Part shown: in pieces, positions 49,924 through 56,528 of the stretch
Layout: each line of letters begins with the position of its first letter
Numbering within the stretch: position 1 is the stretch's first letter
Origin: Nitrospirota bacterium
GTDB lineage: Bacteria; Nitrospirota; UBA9217
Length of the DNA: 64,000 bases
Assembly: GCA_963740085.1 (NCBI GenBank)
Contig: CAVUCU010000001.1
Span: 1,344,001 to 1,408,000 of the forward strand
Direction: 5' to 3'
The notes under the pieces: model-generated
Told to the model about the DNA's origin: nothing
What the model saw: the letters and a program-made list of their open reading frames with translations, nothing else
Database searches by the model: none
Position numbers and translations under genes: made by a program

Positions 49924-50997
49924 ATGACGCAGATACGTCTTGAAAACGTAACGAAGAGCTTCGGCTCGACCACGGTCATCAAAGGCCTCGACCTGACGAT
50001 CAACGAGGGTGAGTTCTTCGCCTTTGTGGGGCCGAGCGGATGCGGCAAGTCCACGATCCTGAACATGATCGCGGGACTGGAGACGATATCCTCCGGCTCG
50101 ATCTTCTTTGATGACAGGCTGGTCAACCAATCGTCGCCAAAAGAGCGGGACGTGGCCATGGTCTTCCAGAGCTACGCGCTCTATCCTCATATGACGGTGT
50201 ACGAGAACATCGCGTTCCCGCTCAGGATGCAAAAGGCCGGGAGAGACCTGATCGACAGCGAGGTCCGGCGCATAGCCGGCTTTCTGGGCCTGGAGGACCT
50301 GCTTGGGAGAAAGCCAAAGGAGCTCTCCGGCGGTCAGCGGCAGCGCGTTGCGCTCGGGAGGGCGATCGTCCGGAAACCGAAGGTCTTTCTGATGGATGAA
50401 CCGCTCTCGAACCTTGATGCGCGCCTGAGGATCGAAATGCGGGCCGAACTGAAACGCCTCCACCAGGAGCTCGGCATCACGACCGTCTATGTGACCCATG
50501 ACCAGGGCGAGGCCATGGGACTCTCGGACAGGATCGCGGTATTGAACAAGGGCGAGGTTCAGCAGTGCGATACACCGCGGACCGTCTATCAGAAGCCCGT
50601 GAACAGCTTCGTGGGCGGGTTTATCGGTAGTCCGCCGATGAATTTTCTGCGCTGTGGCGTGAAACAGGGAAAACCCCTGATCGCGGACTGCAGCGGGGTC
50701 TTCTGGTCCCTGCCGGGAAACGTGCTCCCCGATACACCGGAGGTGCTTGTCGGGATCCGGCCCGAGGATATACTGGTTGAAAGTGTGAAACGGGACAACA
50801 GCATTGCCGTGATCGTTTCTGTGATCGAGCCTGCGGGCGCATTTAACTGGGTGAACGTCTCATGGAAAGGGATAAAGCTCACTGCCATGTCAAGACCCGA
50901 TGATGAGATCCGTCCGAGAACACAGGCATATCTGACGATTTCCCCGGATACGATGTCGGCATTCGACGCCACCTCAGGAGCCAGATTGAAGCCTTAA
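49924..50997 (+). CDS. Sugar ABC transporter ATP-binding protein (MalK-like)
   Basis: GPSGCGKST, VFQSYALYPHM, LSGGQRQR, DEPLSNLDA, YVTHDQ and FIGSPPMN. Confidence 0.95.
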   Translation: MTQIRLENVTKSFGSTTVIKGLDLTINEGEFFAFVGPSGCGKSTILNMIAGLETISSGSIFFDDRLVNQSSPKERDVAMVFQSYALYPHMTVYENIAFPLRMQKAGRDLIDSEVRRIAGFLGLEDLLGRKPKELSGGQRQRVALGRAIVRKPKVFLMDEPLSNLDARLRIEMRAELKRLHQELGITTVYVTHDQGEAMGLSDRIAVLNKGEVQQCDTPRTVYQKPVNSFVGGFIGSPPMNFLRCGVKQGKPLIADCSGVFWSLPGNVLPDTPEVLVGIRPEDILVESVKRDNSIAVIVSVIEPAGAFNWVNVSWKGIKLTAMSRPDDEIRPRTQAYLTISPDTMSAFDATSGARLKP

Positions 50998-51054: not shown

Positions 51055-52401
51055 ATGAAAGTTCCCTCGAAAGCACTGCATCTTGGGCAGGTGTTGCTCC
51101 CCTTCCAGGAGTTCTTCCGCCTGGAAGCAGCAGGCGGCATCCTGCTCATGGCCTGCACGGTGGCGGCCCTGGTCTGGGCCAATTCACCCTGGTCAGGATC
51201 GTACAGCGCGCTCTGGCATACGGAGCTCAGCGCGGGGCTGGGCCCGTGGAGTATTGCGAAATCGCTTCACGCATGGATCAACGACGGTCTGATGGCGATA
51301 TTCTTTTTCGCGGTCGGTCTTGAGATCAAGCGCGAGGTGCTGGTCGGTGAGCTCGCCACCGTAAAGAAGGCCATGTTGCCGATCGCCGCGGCCTTGGGCG
51401 GGATGATGGTCCCGGCAATCATCTATTACGCATTGAATGCGGGAAGGCCGGGCATGAACGGCTGGGGAATTCCCATGGCAACTGACATCGCTTTCGCCCT
51501 GGGCGTACTGGCGATACTGGGAGACCGCGTCTGCCTCTCGGTCAAGATCTTCCTGACAGCCCTGGCGATCGTCGACGATATCGGCGCGGTGCTGATAATC
51601 GCATTGTTCTATACCGCAGAGGTCTCGCTATCCGCCCTTGGTGTGGGAGCTGTTTTTCTGGCCGCGCTTGTCATCGCGAACCGGGCGGGCGTGCACAACC
51701 CGCTCGTGTATACCGTCCTGGGCCTCGGCCTCTGGGCGGCCTTCCTGAAGTCCGGCGTCCATCCCACGGTCGCGGGCGTTATCGTCGCCATGACGATCCC
51801 GGCCCGACAGCAGATCAGCGATGCCGACTTTCTCACCAGGAGCCGGAATATCCTGACTTCCTTTCGGGAGGTGAGTGAAAAAGGCGGCAGAATGATCGCA
51901 AGCGAGAGCCAGCGCAAAGCGGCAGCCGCGCTGAACCGGGCGAGCCAGTTCGTCCAGACGCCGCTCCAGCGTATGGAACATGAGCTCCATCCCTGGGTAA
52001 CGTTCCTCATCGTACCGGTCTTTGCCCTGGCGAATGCGGGCGTGAATATCAGCGCCGGGTTCTCGGAAGCCTTGACGGACCGGATCTCGCTCGGGATCAT
52101 TGCGGGTCTGGTCGGTGGCAAACAAATCGGGATCACGCTCTTTGCCTGGCTTGCCGTCAAGGCCGGCTTGGCAGCGCTTCCCGGGGATATAGCCTGGAAG
52201 GACATCTATGCCGCGGGTTGGCTCGGGGGCATCGGCTTTACCATGTCGCTCTTCATCGCGAATCTTGCCTTTGATGAGACTTCATTCCTTACGGTTTCCA
52301 AGGTCGGCATCTTGACCGCCTCCCTCATAGCGGGCGGCGTGGGGTGGGCGACGTTCAAAAGCACGACGCCCTGCAGGCCGACCATGCCGCAAACCGATTG
52401 A
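51055..52401 (+). CDS. nhaA: Na+/H+ antiporter NhaA
   Basis: WINDGLMAIFF, GLEIKRE, GWGIPMATDIAF, LAIVDD and GIGFTMSLFI. Confidence 0.96.
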   Translation: MKVPSKALHLGQVLLPFQEFFRLEAAGGILLMACTVAALVWANSPWSGSYSALWHTELSAGLGPWSIAKSLHAWINDGLMAIFFFAVGLEIKREVLVGELATVKKAMLPIAAALGGMMVPAIIYYALNAGRPGMNGWGIPMATDIAFALGVLAILGDRVCLSVKIFLTALAIVDDIGAVLIIALFYTAEVSLSALGVGAVFLAALVIANRAGVHNPLVYTVLGLGLWAAFLKSGVHPTVAGVIVAMTIPARQQISDADFLTRSRNILTSFREVSEKGGRMIASESQRKAAAALNRASQFVQTPLQRMEHELHPWVTFLIVPVFALANAGVNISAGFSEALTDRISLGIIAGLVGGKQIGITLFAWLAVKAGLAALPGDIAWKDIYAAGWLGGIGFTMSLFIANLAFDETSFLTVSKVGILTASLIAGGVGWATFKSTTPCRPTMPQTD

Positions 52402-52529
52402 AGGAAGTCCGGGCGAAGCCGAAAATAACGCTGTCGCGACAGCGCGCCTCAGGGAGATTTGATAAGTCAGGAAGATAGGAAGGTCGCACGGAACAGACGG
52501 TCGCGGGTATCGAGTAAAGAGGAGGGACC

Positions 52530-53009
52530 ATGGACAACGAGGTCGTGTATTTATCGAAGGTCAGGATAGAGCGGGATAAAGGGCCGCTTCGGCGGGCCTG
52601 GCTGCCCGCGGAGAAAGAGCCCGTAGTATTCGGCGTTCATTCGGGAATAGCGGCGCATTACAAGGTCGACCCTGCGAAGTTCGAGCCGCATGCAGCGACC
52701 CTCGATTATGTCGTGGCCGCAGCCGCCGGCTGACTCACCGGCACCTTTGGCGGCGCGCTGGAAGCGCGCGGGATATCAGCATCGGAAGGGCGGCTTGCGT
52801 CGGAGGCCCGGGGAGAGATAGAGACCGAGGGCGGTGTGCTCGTAGTAAAACGGATCCACGTTACCTATCATCTCAAGCTCGGCCTCAAGGACCGGGAAAC
52901 CGCCGAACGGGTCCATGGTTTTCACAAGGAACACTGTCCCGTTGCCCGCACCATCGGCAATTGCGTGGACATCACTACTTCGCTCGATATGGAGGATACC
53001 CCGGCCTGA
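52530..53009 (+). CDS. OsmC-family peroxiredoxin-like protein, probable selenoprotein (in-frame TGA at 52731-52733)
   Basis: The 67-aa ORF ends DYVVAAAAG-TGA, and the same frame continues LTGTFGGALEARG...KRIHVTYHL...HCPVARTIG... to TGA 53007-53009, giving 159 aa. GGAGG RBS upstream and SECIS-like hairpin downstream of the TGA. Confidence 0.85.
52753..52769 (+). promoter_or_regulatory. Putative bacterial SECIS hairpin
   Basis: GCGCGCT-GGA-AGCGCGC is a perfect 7-bp stem with a G-initiated loop starting 27 nt after the UGA. Confidence 0.7.
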
Positions 53010-53208
53010 TCCGGGCAAGAGGGAACCGAATTCTTATTCACCACGAAGGTCATACTAGCCGCACAGAAATTCAAAAGGTCGGGCAGAGGGTCCCCTCTTG
53101 TTGTTGTGGGGTCACCCGGCAGTGACATCATGGCCGCCCGCGCGTGCGGACAAAAGCACGCTGGTTCCGGGCCGGCGAAAAAAAGAGAAGCGAACCGTCA
53201 TCTTCATC

Positions 53209-54381
53209 CTACAGCGTGACATTCTCCTGCAGCGCATGGTACGCCAGCAAGAACATGGCGGCGTTCCAGGACTGGCCGTTCATGCCCATGGGTTCGCCGG
53301 TCCTGCCGTGGAACCACTCGTTGAATGACCAGTTGTTCACCCGGCAGACCCCGGCGTAGCGCGCCAGTTCCTGCCAGGCAAGTTCCCTTCGCCCGGTCTT
53401 TGTCAGCAGCATGACCCAGAAGCCGGCGACAAAGGGCCAGATGCCGCCGTTATGGTACTGGTGCGGAAGATTTTGTTTATGACGCTCCATGTAGGGCCGC
53501 CAGAGGGGATTGGTTCTCGCGATGGGGAAGAGCACGGATCGGACGGGCCAGGGACGGTTCGCCTTTTCACGCAGCAGGGCATCAAGAATGCCCGTTCTTC
53601 TCTTCAACACCGGGATCGAGAAGAGGCAGGAGAGCACATTGCCGAAGACATCCACCTCTTCCCCCCAGAAGGAGAAGTTCACGAAGCTGAGGTAAAAGTC
53701 GCGCTGTTTCGCCCCGCTCTTTACATAGTCCGTGAGGACCCGGACGCGGCGGTGCCTGGAGCAGGACTTGTCAAAGGGATAGAACAGATGGCGGAAAAAA
53801 TGACGCGTCTTGTCGGCCGTGGCCACGTGGTAAAGCTTCTTGACATGGTACCACAGTGCGTTGGAGTAGAGCACGAAGCCCGAGCGCGGCATGATGTCGG
53901 CCCAGTCGCTGGCCTCGTTCTGCTGCAGCAGGTACATGCCCTGGTGCTCCTGGCAGAAGAGCCAGCCGAGGGCCTTACCGGTCTCCTGCTCCAGTTTCTT
54001 TTTTAATTCTTCCCCGGGGAAGGTGCGGTCGTAGAAGTCCAGGGCGATGAGCCACCAGAGCGTGGCGTCGATGCAGCCTGAATACCAGAAGTCCGTTTTC
54101 CGTGTCTGGGTCACGTACTTCGGGATCTGGCCGTTCGGGGCCTGGTATCGGGCGAGGGTGAGGATGCCTGTCTTCGCGGCGCGGGCGAGTTCACGGTCTC
54201 CCGATGTCACCATGCCCAGGGAACAGATCGCGGCGTCCCTGCCGAAGATGCTGGCATACCCCCTGTCCACGGCCTTCTTTGAACGGGCGCAGGCAATAAC
54301 ACCGGAGGCCGTGGAGTTCCGCTTCAAGAGTTCCAGGGAGCGGTCGTAGCATTCATCTATGAGATCGATGTCGGTCTTCAT
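53209..54381 (-). CDS. (alpha/alpha)6-barrel glycoside hydrolase (GH100 invertase-like or amylo-alpha-1,6-glucosidase-like)
   Basis: Y..IFGRD, GQIP, DATLWW, YHNGGIWPF, FNEW and QSWNAA motifs. Confidence 0.8.
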   Translation of the reverse strand: MKTDIDLIDECYDRSLELLKRNSTASGVIACARSKKAVDRGYASIFGRDAAICSLGMVTSGDRELARAAKTGILTLARYQAPNGQIPKYVTQTRKTDFWYSGCIDATLWWLIALDFYDRTFPGEELKKKLEQETGKALGWLFCQEHQGMYLLQQNEASDWADIMPRSGFVLYSNALWYHVKKLYHVATADKTRHFFRHLFYPFDKSCSRHRRVRVLTDYVKSGAKQRDFYLSFVNFSFWGEEVDVFGNVLSCLFSIPVLKRRTGILDALLREKANRPWPVRSVLFPIARTNPLWRPYMERHKQNLPHQYHNGGIWPFVAGFWVMLLTKTGRRELAWQELARYAGVCRVNNWSFNEWFHGRTGEPMGMNGQSWNAAMFLLAYHALQENVTL

Positions 54382-54413: not shown

Positions 54414-54530
54414 GAAGTTACCATAGCATGTTTTTCCGTTTTTTTCCATAGCCCTGTAGCATCGGCTTTTTTGCACCCCTGTGCATCTCACGATCCGCAG
54501 GACATATCGATCAAGACCAAGGGGACTTTC

Positions 54531-56528
54531 ATGATTGAAGACGGAAGAAGGCGGGTTGTCATCGAGCGCGTGTATCCCGAGATCGATGGCGGTGCATTTC
54601 CGGCGAAGCGGGTGGTCGGAGAAAAGATCGAGGTGTCGGCTGATATCTTTTCCGACGGCCACGACTCGCTCTCCGCGCGGCTGCAGTACCGCCTTGCCTC
54701 GGACTCCGCATGGATCTCGGTTCCGATGGTTTCCCGGGTGAACGACCGTTGGCGTGCCGAGTTCACGGTCGCGGAGATGGGCGTCTACGTCTATACGGTC
54801 GAGGGATGGGTGGACCATTTCCGGACCTGGCAGCGGGACCTCAAGAAGAAGCACGAGGCCGACCAGGACCTGCGCGTGGATCTCATGACCGGCCTGCGGA
54901 TGGTCGCTGACGCGGTCAGCCGCATCACCGATGACAAGCCCCGTCAGGCCATCACCCTCCTTCACGGTCAGCTTGAGAAGGCGGCAGGCGGAAGTGATGC
55001 CGAGGCGGTTGCTCTTGCCCTGGGTAAGGACCTTACGGACCTCATGGAGCAATATCCCGATCGGCGTTTTGCTGTTACTTATGGCAGGGAGCTGCAGGTC
55101 ACTGTGGATATTCCCAAGGCGCTCTTCAGCACGTGGTACGAGTTCTTTCCCCGTTCGGTCCCGTCCGATAAGGGGGAACTCACGGCACCTTCAAAGACTG
55201 CGAGAGGTTCCTGCCCTATGTGGCCGGCATGGGCTTCGATGTCGTCTATCTTCCCCCCATCCATCCGATCGGCGACGACGAAACGAAAAGGAAAGGACAA
55301 TGCCGCAGAGGCCGCGCCGGACGACGTGGGAAGCCCATGGGCCATCGGAAGCGCCGAGGGTGGTCATGACGCGGTGCATCCCGACCTCGGTACTGCTGAC
55401 GATCTGGAACGGTTCGTCAGGAAGGCGAAGGAGCTGGGCATCGACGTGGCCCTGGACCTGGCGCTCCAGTGCTCTCCGGACCATCCTTACGTGAAGGACC
55501 ATCCGACATGGTTCCGCTGGCGGCCCGATGGAACGGTCCAGTTTGCAGAGAACCCGCCGAAGAAGTATGAGGACATCTTCCCGCTGAACTTCGAGACCGA
55601 GGACTGGCAGGGGCTTTGGGAGGAGGTCCTGCGGGTGGTGCGGTTCTGGATCACCAAGGGCGTGCGTATCTTCCGCGTGGACAATCCGCACACCAAACCC
55701 TTCGCCTTCTGGCACTGGCTTATCCGCGAGGTTCGGAAAGAACATCCCGAGGTGTTCTTCCTGGCCGAAGCATTCACGAGGCCCAAGATCATGTCCCGCC
55801 TGGGCAAGGTGGGGTTCGCCCAGTCCTATACGTACTTCACCTGGCGCTATACCAAGCGGGAGTTCGTCGAGTACCTGACCGAATTGACGCGCAGCGACCT
55901 CCGGGACCTCTACCGGCCGAACTTCTGGCCGAATACGCCGGACATCCTTCCGGAACATCTTCAATACGGGGGCAGGCCGGCGTTCATCATGCGGTATCTG
56001 CTTGCCGCCACGCTTTCGTCGAACATCGGGATCTACGGACCGGCCTTCGAACTCTGCGTGAACGAACCCGTGTCCGGGAAGGAAGAGTACCTCCACTCGG
56101 AGAAGTATGAGATCAGGAAGTGGGACCTTGATGATCCGAAGAGCCTGCGCGAGGTCATCGCCCGGATCAACCGCATCCGCCGGGAGAACAAGGCGCTCCA
56201 GACCACCTGGAACCTTGAGTTCTACGAGACCGACAACGACAATCTGCTGTGCTACGGCAAGGCCACGGAGGACGGCGAGAACGCGCTCATCATCGTGGTG
56301 AACCTCGATCCCTTCCATGCCCAGTCGGGCTGGGTCCGCATCCCGGTTCAGGAGCTCGGCCTGGGCGACCACCAGCCCTACCTGGTGCACGACCTGATCG
56401 GCGACGACAAGTACATCTGGGAGGGGGAGCGGAACTTCGTGGAGCTCAACCCGCAGGTAATGCCGGGCAATATACTCCGGGTTCGGAAGAAGCTGAAGCG
56501 CGAGACAGATTTTGATTATTTTCTGTAA
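54531..56528 (+). CDS. glgE: Alpha-1,4-glucan:maltose-1-phosphate maltosyltransferase GlgE, with a short compensated frameshift in this sequence
   Basis: [55 protein letters not shown] and PNTPDIL. Confidence 0.93.

Follow-up and report, generated by a model that had tools for sequence, protein, structure and literature searches.

Selenoproteins of the OsmC type have been known as a kind since 2005, when an OsmC-like family (PF02566/COG1765) with selenocysteine (Sec) in a UxxT motif was predicted from Sargasso Sea data (Zhang, Fomenko & Gladyshev; PMC1088965). As published, the family is rare in its Sec form, with 3 Sec sequences against 10 cysteine (Cys) homologues in the Sargasso Sea data set (PMC1088965) and 5 against 161 in the 2008 Global Ocean Sampling (GOS) survey (PMC2398784). 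Three OsmC-like Sec sequences from an Olavius symbiont data set were tabulated in 2007, and the family also appears in reviews of 2022 and 2026 (PMC9312934, PMC13188914). A full-text literature search found no biochemical characterisation of an OsmC-type selenoprotein in the searchable literature, in agreement with the initial annotation of the DNA described here, which had remarked that such proteins were predicted and biochemically uncharacterised. That DNA is a stretch of 64,000 nucleotides from a Nitrospirota bacterium (contig CAVUCU010000001.1, positions 1,344,001 to 1,408,000; hereafter the window), in which an OsmC-family gene at 52530-53009 on the forward strand is interrupted by an in-frame TGA. 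We consider it highly probable, from the sequence comparisons and structure predictions below, that a single functional gene at 52530-53009 encodes a 159-residue selenoprotein of OsmC/Ohr fold with Sec at the position of the first catalytic Cys. It would represent a separate Sec-bearing branch within a superfamily in which selenoproteins are already known, and one that public annotation has missed.

Reading frame, fold and catalytic positions

Under genetic code table 11 the open reading frame (ORF) at 52530..52733 encodes 67 amino acids and is terminated by the TGA at 52731-52733, yet, as the initial annotation had noticed, the same frame then stays open for 91 further codons, up to a second TGA at 53007-53009. 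Translation of 52530-53006 with the first TGA as U gives 159 uninterrupted residues with U at position 68 (...AAAG-U-LTGTFGGALEAR...), and the peptide strings quoted in that annotation match this translation. The N-terminus, MDNEVVY..., aligns with the N-termini of full-length homologues. The downstream half, by contrast, was said to lack a convincing start of its own, and this holds: its first in-frame start is a GTG at 52836, 34 codons past the TGA, so that no start retains its conserved residues, 34 of which would be lost. The features of the gene are as follows.

52520..52525, + strand: Shine-Dalgarno-like AGGAGG, read from the sequence, 4 nt before the ATG
52530..53009, + strand: predicted complete coding sequence of a Sec-containing OsmC-fold protein, 159 amino acids plus terminal TGA (translation, PF02566, structure model, Foldseek)
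52731..52733, + strand: in-frame UGA, predicted to encode Sec (U68) at the first (peroxidatic) Cys position (paralogue alignment, TGA conservation, contigs of DNA runs)
52753..52769, + strand: predicted selenocysteine insertion sequence (SECIS) hairpin within the coding sequence, stem 52753-52759/52763-52769, loop GGA 52760-52762
52935..52937, + strand: TGT codon of Cys136 in a C-P-V motif, presumed resolving cysteine (invariant in 120/120 homologues; paralogue alignment)
53007..53009, + strand: terminal TGA, a genuine stop (homologues end at about the same position)
53085..53098, + strand: hairpin of terminator type with a T-rich tail behind it, some 75 nt past the stop, a weak consensus match only

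The base calls at 52731 were borne out by independent contigs. Those of four public DNA runs, which belong to one study and have a depth of 3-5, span the TGA and the hairpin without any difference there, while differing from the window at nearby positions such as 52710, 52721 and 52820.

The read-through protein matched the Pfam OsmC model PF02566 with 50.1 bits (gathering cut-off 27.5) over residues 58-150, corresponding to profile positions 9-99 of 100, and this match crosses the TGA. When the two pieces were searched separately, the C-terminal piece alone reached 34.8 bits and the N-terminal piece alone gave no OsmC match. A search of PDB sequences with the family profile returned a single weak match (2onf, E = 0.0045), and we therefore turned to a fold search. 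An AlphaFold2 (AF2) model built from a 60-sequence alignment had a mean predicted local distance difference test score (pLDDT) of 96.1 and a predicted template modelling score (pTM) of 0.88. The model places U68 inside a long helix (residues 57-79), and C136 where helix 119-135 meets helix 137-142. Comparison of the model with the PDB by Foldseek gave 64 matches at E <= 0.001; the top hits among those listed are crystal structures of OsmC, Ohr and OsmC-like proteins (E 2e-8 to 1e-5, identity 10-20%), the leading OsmC and Ohr entries having E of about 1e-8 to 1e-6 and TMt 0.64-0.85.

The assignment of the two catalytic positions comes from the same genome, which holds four OsmC-domain genes, only this one with an internal TGA. 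Against the three Cys-type paralogues, U68 lines up with the first Cys (motif G-C) and C136 with the second (C-P-V or C-S-V); C136 is also invariant in 120/120 homologues. The genome further encodes the whole set of Sec genes selA, selB, selC and selD. Thus selA scored 522.6 bits; about 2 kb away lies selB, recognised by its C-terminal winged-helix domain (75.3 bits); and about 5 kb further on from selB lies the gene for tRNA-Sec (selC, 66.7 bits), which ARAGORN also called as tRNA-SeC with anticodon tca (UCA). The selD gene (L011:1384-2607, - strand, corresponding to about 750.8-751.7 kb of contig G000:C1) has an in-frame TGA of its own in the N-terminal context ...SSCAG-U-AAKF..., and is by its sequence an internal positive control for UGA decoded as Sec in this organism. 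TGA is also a normal stop in this genome, since it ends both the upstream NhaA gene and the OsmC gene itself. Alignment, PF02566 match, AF2 model and conservation thus uphold the earlier proposal of a 159-residue OsmC-family gene whose UGA stands for Sec at the first Cys position.

By analogy with OsmC/Ohr enzymes the product is probably a peroxide-reducing enzyme of the Sec/Cys type. A genuine selenoprotein with another task, such as a different selenol/thiol redox protein or a carrier protein, is the alternative that survives best; it concerns function only, is compatible with Sec at U68, and seems to us unlikely while still deserving serious weight. YhfA-type proteins, whose function is unknown, share the OsmC fold. 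The protein falls far below the cut-offs of the models for OsmC proper (TIGR03562, 25.8 against 85.8) and for the SACOL1771 subfamily (TIGR03563, 17.7 against 166.15), gives no match to any Ohr-subfamily model, and reaches the cut-off of no NCBIfam model. Its identity to solved OsmC/Ohr structures is 10-20%, it has Asp for the Glu of the paralogues' P-x-E motif, and no conserved neighbour indicates a pathway. On the other hand, the protein retains the two positions at which the two-Cys OsmC/Ohr mechanism operates, and selenoproteins of the thiol peroxidase type usually have their Sec at the peroxidatic position, which argues for the Sec/Cys peroxidase.

For such a peroxidase we envisage the following sequence of events. 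At codon 68 a ribosome would reach the UGA while SelB, loaded with Sec-tRNA(Sec), sits on the downstream mRNA hairpin (GGA loop on a GC-rich stem of 7 bp), and Sec would be inserted in place of termination. The UGA that closes the gene has no such hairpin and would act as a stop. Sec68, in the long central helix, would occupy the peroxidatic Cys position of OsmC/Ohr and Cys136 of the C-P-V motif the resolving one. The Sec68 selenolate would then attack a hydroperoxide to give a selenenic acid, which Cys136 would resolve to a selenenylsulfide, and a dithiol reductant, possibly a lipoyl protein or a protein of the thioredoxin type as for Ohr/OsmC, would regenerate the enzyme. What is said here of selenium being incorporated, of SelB binding to the hairpin, of peroxidase activity and of the reductant is inferred.

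Conservation of the TGA and of the hairpin behind it

Related loci were located with patterns that flank, and exclude, the U68 column, and from genome contigs and metagenome contigs alike the best 80 were taken. The codon at this column was TGA in 80/80 genome contigs and in 80/80 metagenome contigs (L135 included), and TGG in none. Within this genome and its relatives, TGA stands at the column in 4/4 copies that share 77-81% identity. One relative of the same family-level group (G034) has two copies of the gene (L016, G034:C1:219807-220274; L018, G034:C8:50441-50908), with 77% and 78% identity to the window protein and with TGA and hairpin in both. Six-frame searches of three phyla gave the following census.

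Nitrospirota: gene in 13/401 genomes; TGA in 14/15 match rows, the other row being an N-terminal fragment beside a frame-shifted copy
Acidobacteriota: gene in 46/301 genomes; TGA in 51/52 match rows, the other being an N-terminal fragment
Chloroflexota: gene in 19/401 genomes; TGA in 19/19 match rows, all at the homologous column

No stop-free copy appeared in the census of the three phyla, even though Cys-form proteins were among the queries; these too returned only TGA forms. Homologues were expected to show TGA or Cys at this column with both flanks conserved, and this is what was found, TGA being the usual state and Cys the rarer one.

Some loci were irregular. A frame break lies at or close to the Sec codon in one locus represented by two overlapping pieces in different frames (L188/L198, G202:C58:194641-195095) and, in Acidobacteriota, around the Sec column of L224 (G619:C21); these may be pseudogenes or assembly errors. 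Five further Acidobacteriota loci (L203, L204, L214, L216 and L220) contain one more stop codon within the match (TAG or a second TGA), probably the terminal one, the query being longer at the C-terminus.

A divergent Nitrospirota clade of eight loci (L189-L196, in genomes G120, G321, G387, G397, G363, G377, G183 and G343) has TGA at the same column in the context ...ATLDHIVAATA[AG]-U-MMGTLA..., a second Cys motif C-P-A-A, and 34-38% identity to the Cys-form query. Its hairpin differs from that of the main clade, consisting of CUGGCC...GGCCGG with a GGYG loop at about 15-35 nt after the UGA, about 5 bases closer to the TGA.

SelA was found in 43/46 gene-positive against 193/255 gene-negative Acidobacteriota genomes (Fisher p = 0.006, related genomes being non-independent); these tallies take in three genomes (G452, G555 and G427) that are all SelA-positive and all outside the 46. 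We regard this co-occurrence as weak evidence for the Sec reading, because the SelA background is high (236/301 sampled Acidobacteriota genomes) and because of that non-independence.

The hairpin reported in the initial annotation is present as described: GCGCGCT (52753-52759), GGA (52760-52762) and AGCGCGC (52763-52769) form a perfect 7-bp stem with a 3-nt loop, whose first base lies 27 positions past the A of the TGA, with 26 nt between. The whole element spans 20-36 nt downstream of the UGA and has a minimum free energy (MFE) of -11.2 kcal/mol. According to the portion of the 2026 review available to us, the bacterial SECIS (bSECIS) consensus has a loop of 3-9 nt with a G among its two opening positions, a stem of 4-16 bp, a spacing of 16-37 nt and an MFE <= -7.5 kcal/mol (PMC13188914). 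The hairpin agrees in every term, with a loop of 3 nt beginning GG, a stem of 7 bp, a spacing of 26 nt and an MFE of -11.2. It is the sole perfect 7-bp hairpin in 52000-53500. In the 64-kb window there are 35 perfect 7-bp hairpins with loops of 3-8 nt (0.55 per kb; block shuffles mean 26.6), and from this density there is about a 1% chance that one falls within the permitted zone, roughly 20 nt long, downstream of a given TGA.

Conservation of the hairpin is extreme. Each of the seven stem pairs is formed in 150-155 of 155 distinct sequences, and in a 150-row alignment 98.6% of cells are paired, against 20-71% when the 3' partner is slid. This by itself proves little, because the stem is encoded by the codons GGC GCG CTG GAR GCG CGY of a near-invariant peptide, G-A-L-E-A-R. 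More telling are the synonymous sites. Those of the stem and the first loop G are near-invariant (134-153 of ~150), with third-position entropies of 0.58 (Gly), 0.31 (Ala), 0.11 (Leu) and 0.12 bits (Ala), whereas codons for Gly, Ala, Thr, Leu and Ser that are just as conserved but lie elsewhere in the segment have 1.1-1.97 bits, the segment's other codons taken together have 1.0-1.97 bits, and other four-fold sites vary freely. The two stem positions that do vary (Glu GAA/GAG and Arg CGC/CGT) only toggle between U-A and U-G and between G-C and G-U. Pair G26-C34 has become A-U in 3/150 main-clade rows, through GCG to GCA together with GCG to GUG (Ala to Val), and the same change occurs in L225, L226 and L228. 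Checked against both the bSECIS model and its own conservation, the hairpin at 52753..52769 is strongly supported by sequence as a SECIS element and is predicted to bind SelB.

Several observations nevertheless weigh against reading the locus as a selenoprotein gene with a SECIS element. Two-sided covariation in the main clade is scarce (1/7 pairs, 3/1050 cells), shuffles equalling the observed count of covarying pairs in 94/500 trials; the argument from the hairpin therefore rests on synonymous-site constraint and on the divergent clades. The 76-nt context folds no better than shuffles (MFE z = 0.31, in GC-rich DNA), and an Rfam search of 52000-53500 (E <= 10) matched neither SECIS nor any other family of relevance, its four hits being to unrelated families and at chance level. 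The GCGCGC stem has decayed in a subclade with the peptide ALE[KT]R (L216-L222), where prediction yields only another hairpin, placed a few bases upstream. For a comparison with the corresponding region of Cys forms, a tblastn search of the Cys form against plasmids gave no match. None of the public runs containing this stretch is an RNA run, the four matching runs being DNA contigs of one study, and a SelA hit is absent from 3/46 gene-positive Acidobacteriota genomes (G484, G633 and G658; completeness not stated). On the protein side, the acidic residue before the first-Cys helix is Asp59 where the paralogues have Glu (P-x-E motif), and the case for peroxidase activity comes from the fold only.

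Could the hairpin instead be a by-product of the conserved G-A-L-E-A-R peptide in GC-rich genomes, with no part in decoding? The stem is indeed built from the codons of a nearly invariant peptide, and the rarity of two-sided covariation and the unremarkable fold of the context would be explained. We nonetheless think this improbable. The third positions of stem and loop G have entropies of 0.11-0.58 bits against 1.1-1.9 outside, the only frequent variants are those that preserve pairing, an Ala-to-Val change maintains one of the stem pairs, and a clade with another peptide has another hairpin at the same place.

The residues that databases give at the U68 column raise the question whether the UGA is decoded as something other than Sec. 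A word-indexed protein search found 2511 proteins at E <= 0.001, and in the best 120 full-length homologues, most of them from contigs about 1 kb long, the column is W in 101 homologues, C in 15, and L and G in 2 each. Exact matching linked only P0001 and P0122, the window's own translations, to their own locus (L014). In three locus/protein pairs of 94-97% identity the W of the database protein corresponds to TGA in the locus, and two mates of one 90% cluster (P0064 and P0151) differ exactly at this column, G against W. On this sequence evidence W and G at the column are TGA mistranslated, under table 4 (W) and table 25 (G). In NCBI nr, one relative has been split into a 66-residue hypothetical protein (MCH8873500.1) and a 90-residue OsmC family protein (MCH8873499.1).

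Leu at the Sec/Cys column occurs in clusters P0057 and P0098/P0132, one of them on a 5.86-Mb contig. We know of no genetic code in which TGA is read as Leu, and judging by their sequences these homologues may be catalytically altered variants.

Decoding without Sec would take the form of near-cognate read-through (Trp, Cys or Arg) or of a local reassignment, for which the W in 101/120 and G in 2/120 homologues might be cited, TGG being one transition from TGA. We judge it very improbable. TGG is found in none of the DNA loci, the three near-identical pairs have TGA in the DNA and W in the protein, and the G-versus-W difference between P0064 and P0151 is as expected from TGA under table 25 and table 4. 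TGA is moreover a normal stop in this genome, Trp at a catalytic Cys column would be chemically senseless while the second Cys is invariant, and the genome combines complete Sec machinery with a constrained SECIS-type hairpin. Finally, the TGA might be put down to a nonsense mutation or to faulty sequencing or assembly, leaving a pseudogene or two unrelated small ORFs, as could be argued from the table-11 gene caller stopping at 52733, from the annotation of the nr relative as two genes and from the frame disruptions near the column in G202 and L224. This is effectively refuted by the conservation of TGA across phyla: this codon is TGA in every related locus examined, with an intact frame and both flanks conserved, the contigs of four runs show it, the Pfam match spans it, and the downstream half is without a start that keeps its conserved residues.

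Selenocysteine and cysteine within the branch

To place the Cys forms, a maximum-likelihood tree was computed from 130 rows with the Sec/Cys column masked, the protein rows being taken from the top 120 hits to the Sec query. Sec labels were inferred from W or G in protein rows, and the 15 'C' rows are known from protein records; the root was set on a divergent clade within the family. The 15 Cys rows require 11 parsimony changes, at least 5 of them forced by branches with Shimodaira-Hasegawa-like approximate likelihood ratio test (SH-aLRT) support >= 95, and the two deepest clades are all-Sec. A single Cys clade was rejected by the approximately unbiased (AU) test (log-likelihood difference, delta lnL, 273.8; p-AU 1.3e-65); membership of the tested group followed from the residue and not from position in the tree, although the tree had been seen beforehand. 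Cys forms appear as scattered tips inside Sec clades, several of them with long terminal branches (0.34-0.66; median 0.13), and the protein atlas suggests that the Cys clusters are mostly from Actinomycetota.

As the Sec rows share one homologous hairpin, a Sec ancestor with repeated Sec-to-Cys replacement is the simplest reading of this pattern. We advance it tentatively, at a strength just short of an even call: in this widespread soil and sediment branch (G-U-L-T-G-T ... C-P-V), Sec would be ancestral and overwhelmingly dominant and would have been replaced by Cys repeatedly. As far as the accessible text of the 2026 review goes, Cys homologues far outnumber Sec proteins, and bacterial Sec-to-Cys reversions are rare and concern mainly FdhA and SelD (PMC13188914). 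If our reading is correct, a branch with ancestral Sec would run against both of these generalisations in that text (PMC13188914), survey methods relying on Cys/Sec pairs and curated models would under-detect it, and it would offer a well-sampled bacterial case for the debate on why Sec is retained.

The practical consequences concern annotation and enzymology. The gene and its relatives are wrongly annotated, either split in two or given Trp or Gly at the catalytic residue, and there is no curated NCBIfam model for the branch, which fits the splitting of the nr relative in GenBank; correction would reach many records (2511 database proteins, 46/301 sampled Acidobacteriota genomes). A small and readily expressed Sec/Cys enzyme of OsmC fold with natural Cys-form relatives would also be a convenient system for studying the advantage of Sec over Cys in peroxide chemistry.

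Genomic neighbourhood and comparison with described OsmC proteins

The genes around 52530-53009 in the window are the following.

49924-50997: MalK-like ATP-binding cassette (ABC) ATPase
51055-52401: NhaA Na+/H+ antiporter
53209-54381, - strand: GH100/GDE-like glycosidase
54471-56528: GlgE-type maltosyltransferase

A neighbourhood of compatible-solute or alpha-glucan type is plausible from these genes, and the initial annotation had placed the OsmC gene within an osmotic-stress locus. That part of the proposal did not hold. When the four window neighbours were searched for by tblastn, NhaA, the GH100/GDE-like gene and GlgE were near the gene in 0/163 related loci and MalK-like ABC ATPases in 7/163; when flanking ORFs were clustered all-against-all, the commonest recurrent neighbour was present in 13/162 loci. 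The neighbour counts of 0/163 and 13/162 lead us to reject an osmotic-stress context as a conserved feature, and the OsmC gene behaves as a free-standing unit.

Two terminator-like sites were found against 1.0 expected in shuffles, and the one past the OsmC stop (53085..53098) is not significant alone. A further terminator-like hairpin, GCGCTGTCGCGACAGCGT followed by a T-rich tail, lies on the - strand at 52428-52445 in the NhaA-OsmC intergenic region, where no minus-strand gene ends; it may be a bidirectional terminator of NhaA or a chance match.

With the OsmC-like family as published, the window protein shares the PF02566 fold, UGA-encoded Sec at the first Cys and a SECIS element with a G in a small apical loop. 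The differences, again from the published descriptions, are that the family motif is UxxT whereas this protein reads G-U-L-T-G-T, with Thr at +2 and +4 and Gly at +3; that the second Cys (C-P-V) is invariant in this branch; and that the published family is rare in Sec form (3-5 Sec against 10-161 Cys) whereas Sec dominates here. Since the comparison is with descriptions, it proves neither identity with that family nor distinctness from it.

A different TGA-bearing OsmC gene was encountered in a Desulfobacterales genome (L232, G403:C1:5729437-5729790, - strand), with ...NALAT-U-MTTT... at the Sec codon and S-P-V instead of C-P-V. It fits the published UxxT motif and clearly belongs to a different branch from the window gene, though its genome (G403) has both. 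The Olavius Delta-1 genome also carries the present branch (L065/L254); it has two TGA-bearing OsmC genes, against three in the 2007 tabulation as available to us, which is suggestive, without being proof, that this branch was among the Olavius genes counted then.

Another Sec-bearing branch of the OsmC superfamily, this one with a curated model, is NCBIfam NF041052, 'OsmC-related (seleno)protein'. Membership of the window protein in it was rejected (17 bits against a cut-off of 95). No gene in the five genomes searched (G000, G034, G401, G402 and G403) reached that cut-off: the only hit in a six-frame search of the present genome was a Cys-type paralogue (24.4 bits), and L232 scored 46 bits.

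The best-described relatives are the two-Cys OsmC/Ohr enzymes, among them E. coli OsmC (1nye/1qwi), Xylella Ohr (1zb9) and Chromobacterium OhrB (6eb4), which have the same fold and equivalent redox positions, the first in a long helix after a run of small residues ending in G and the second in C-P/S-V. The window protein differs from them in having Sec for the first Cys, an identity of 10-20% and an extra N-terminal beta-hairpin region (residues 1-35), and from its own Cys-type paralogues also in having Asp59 for Glu.

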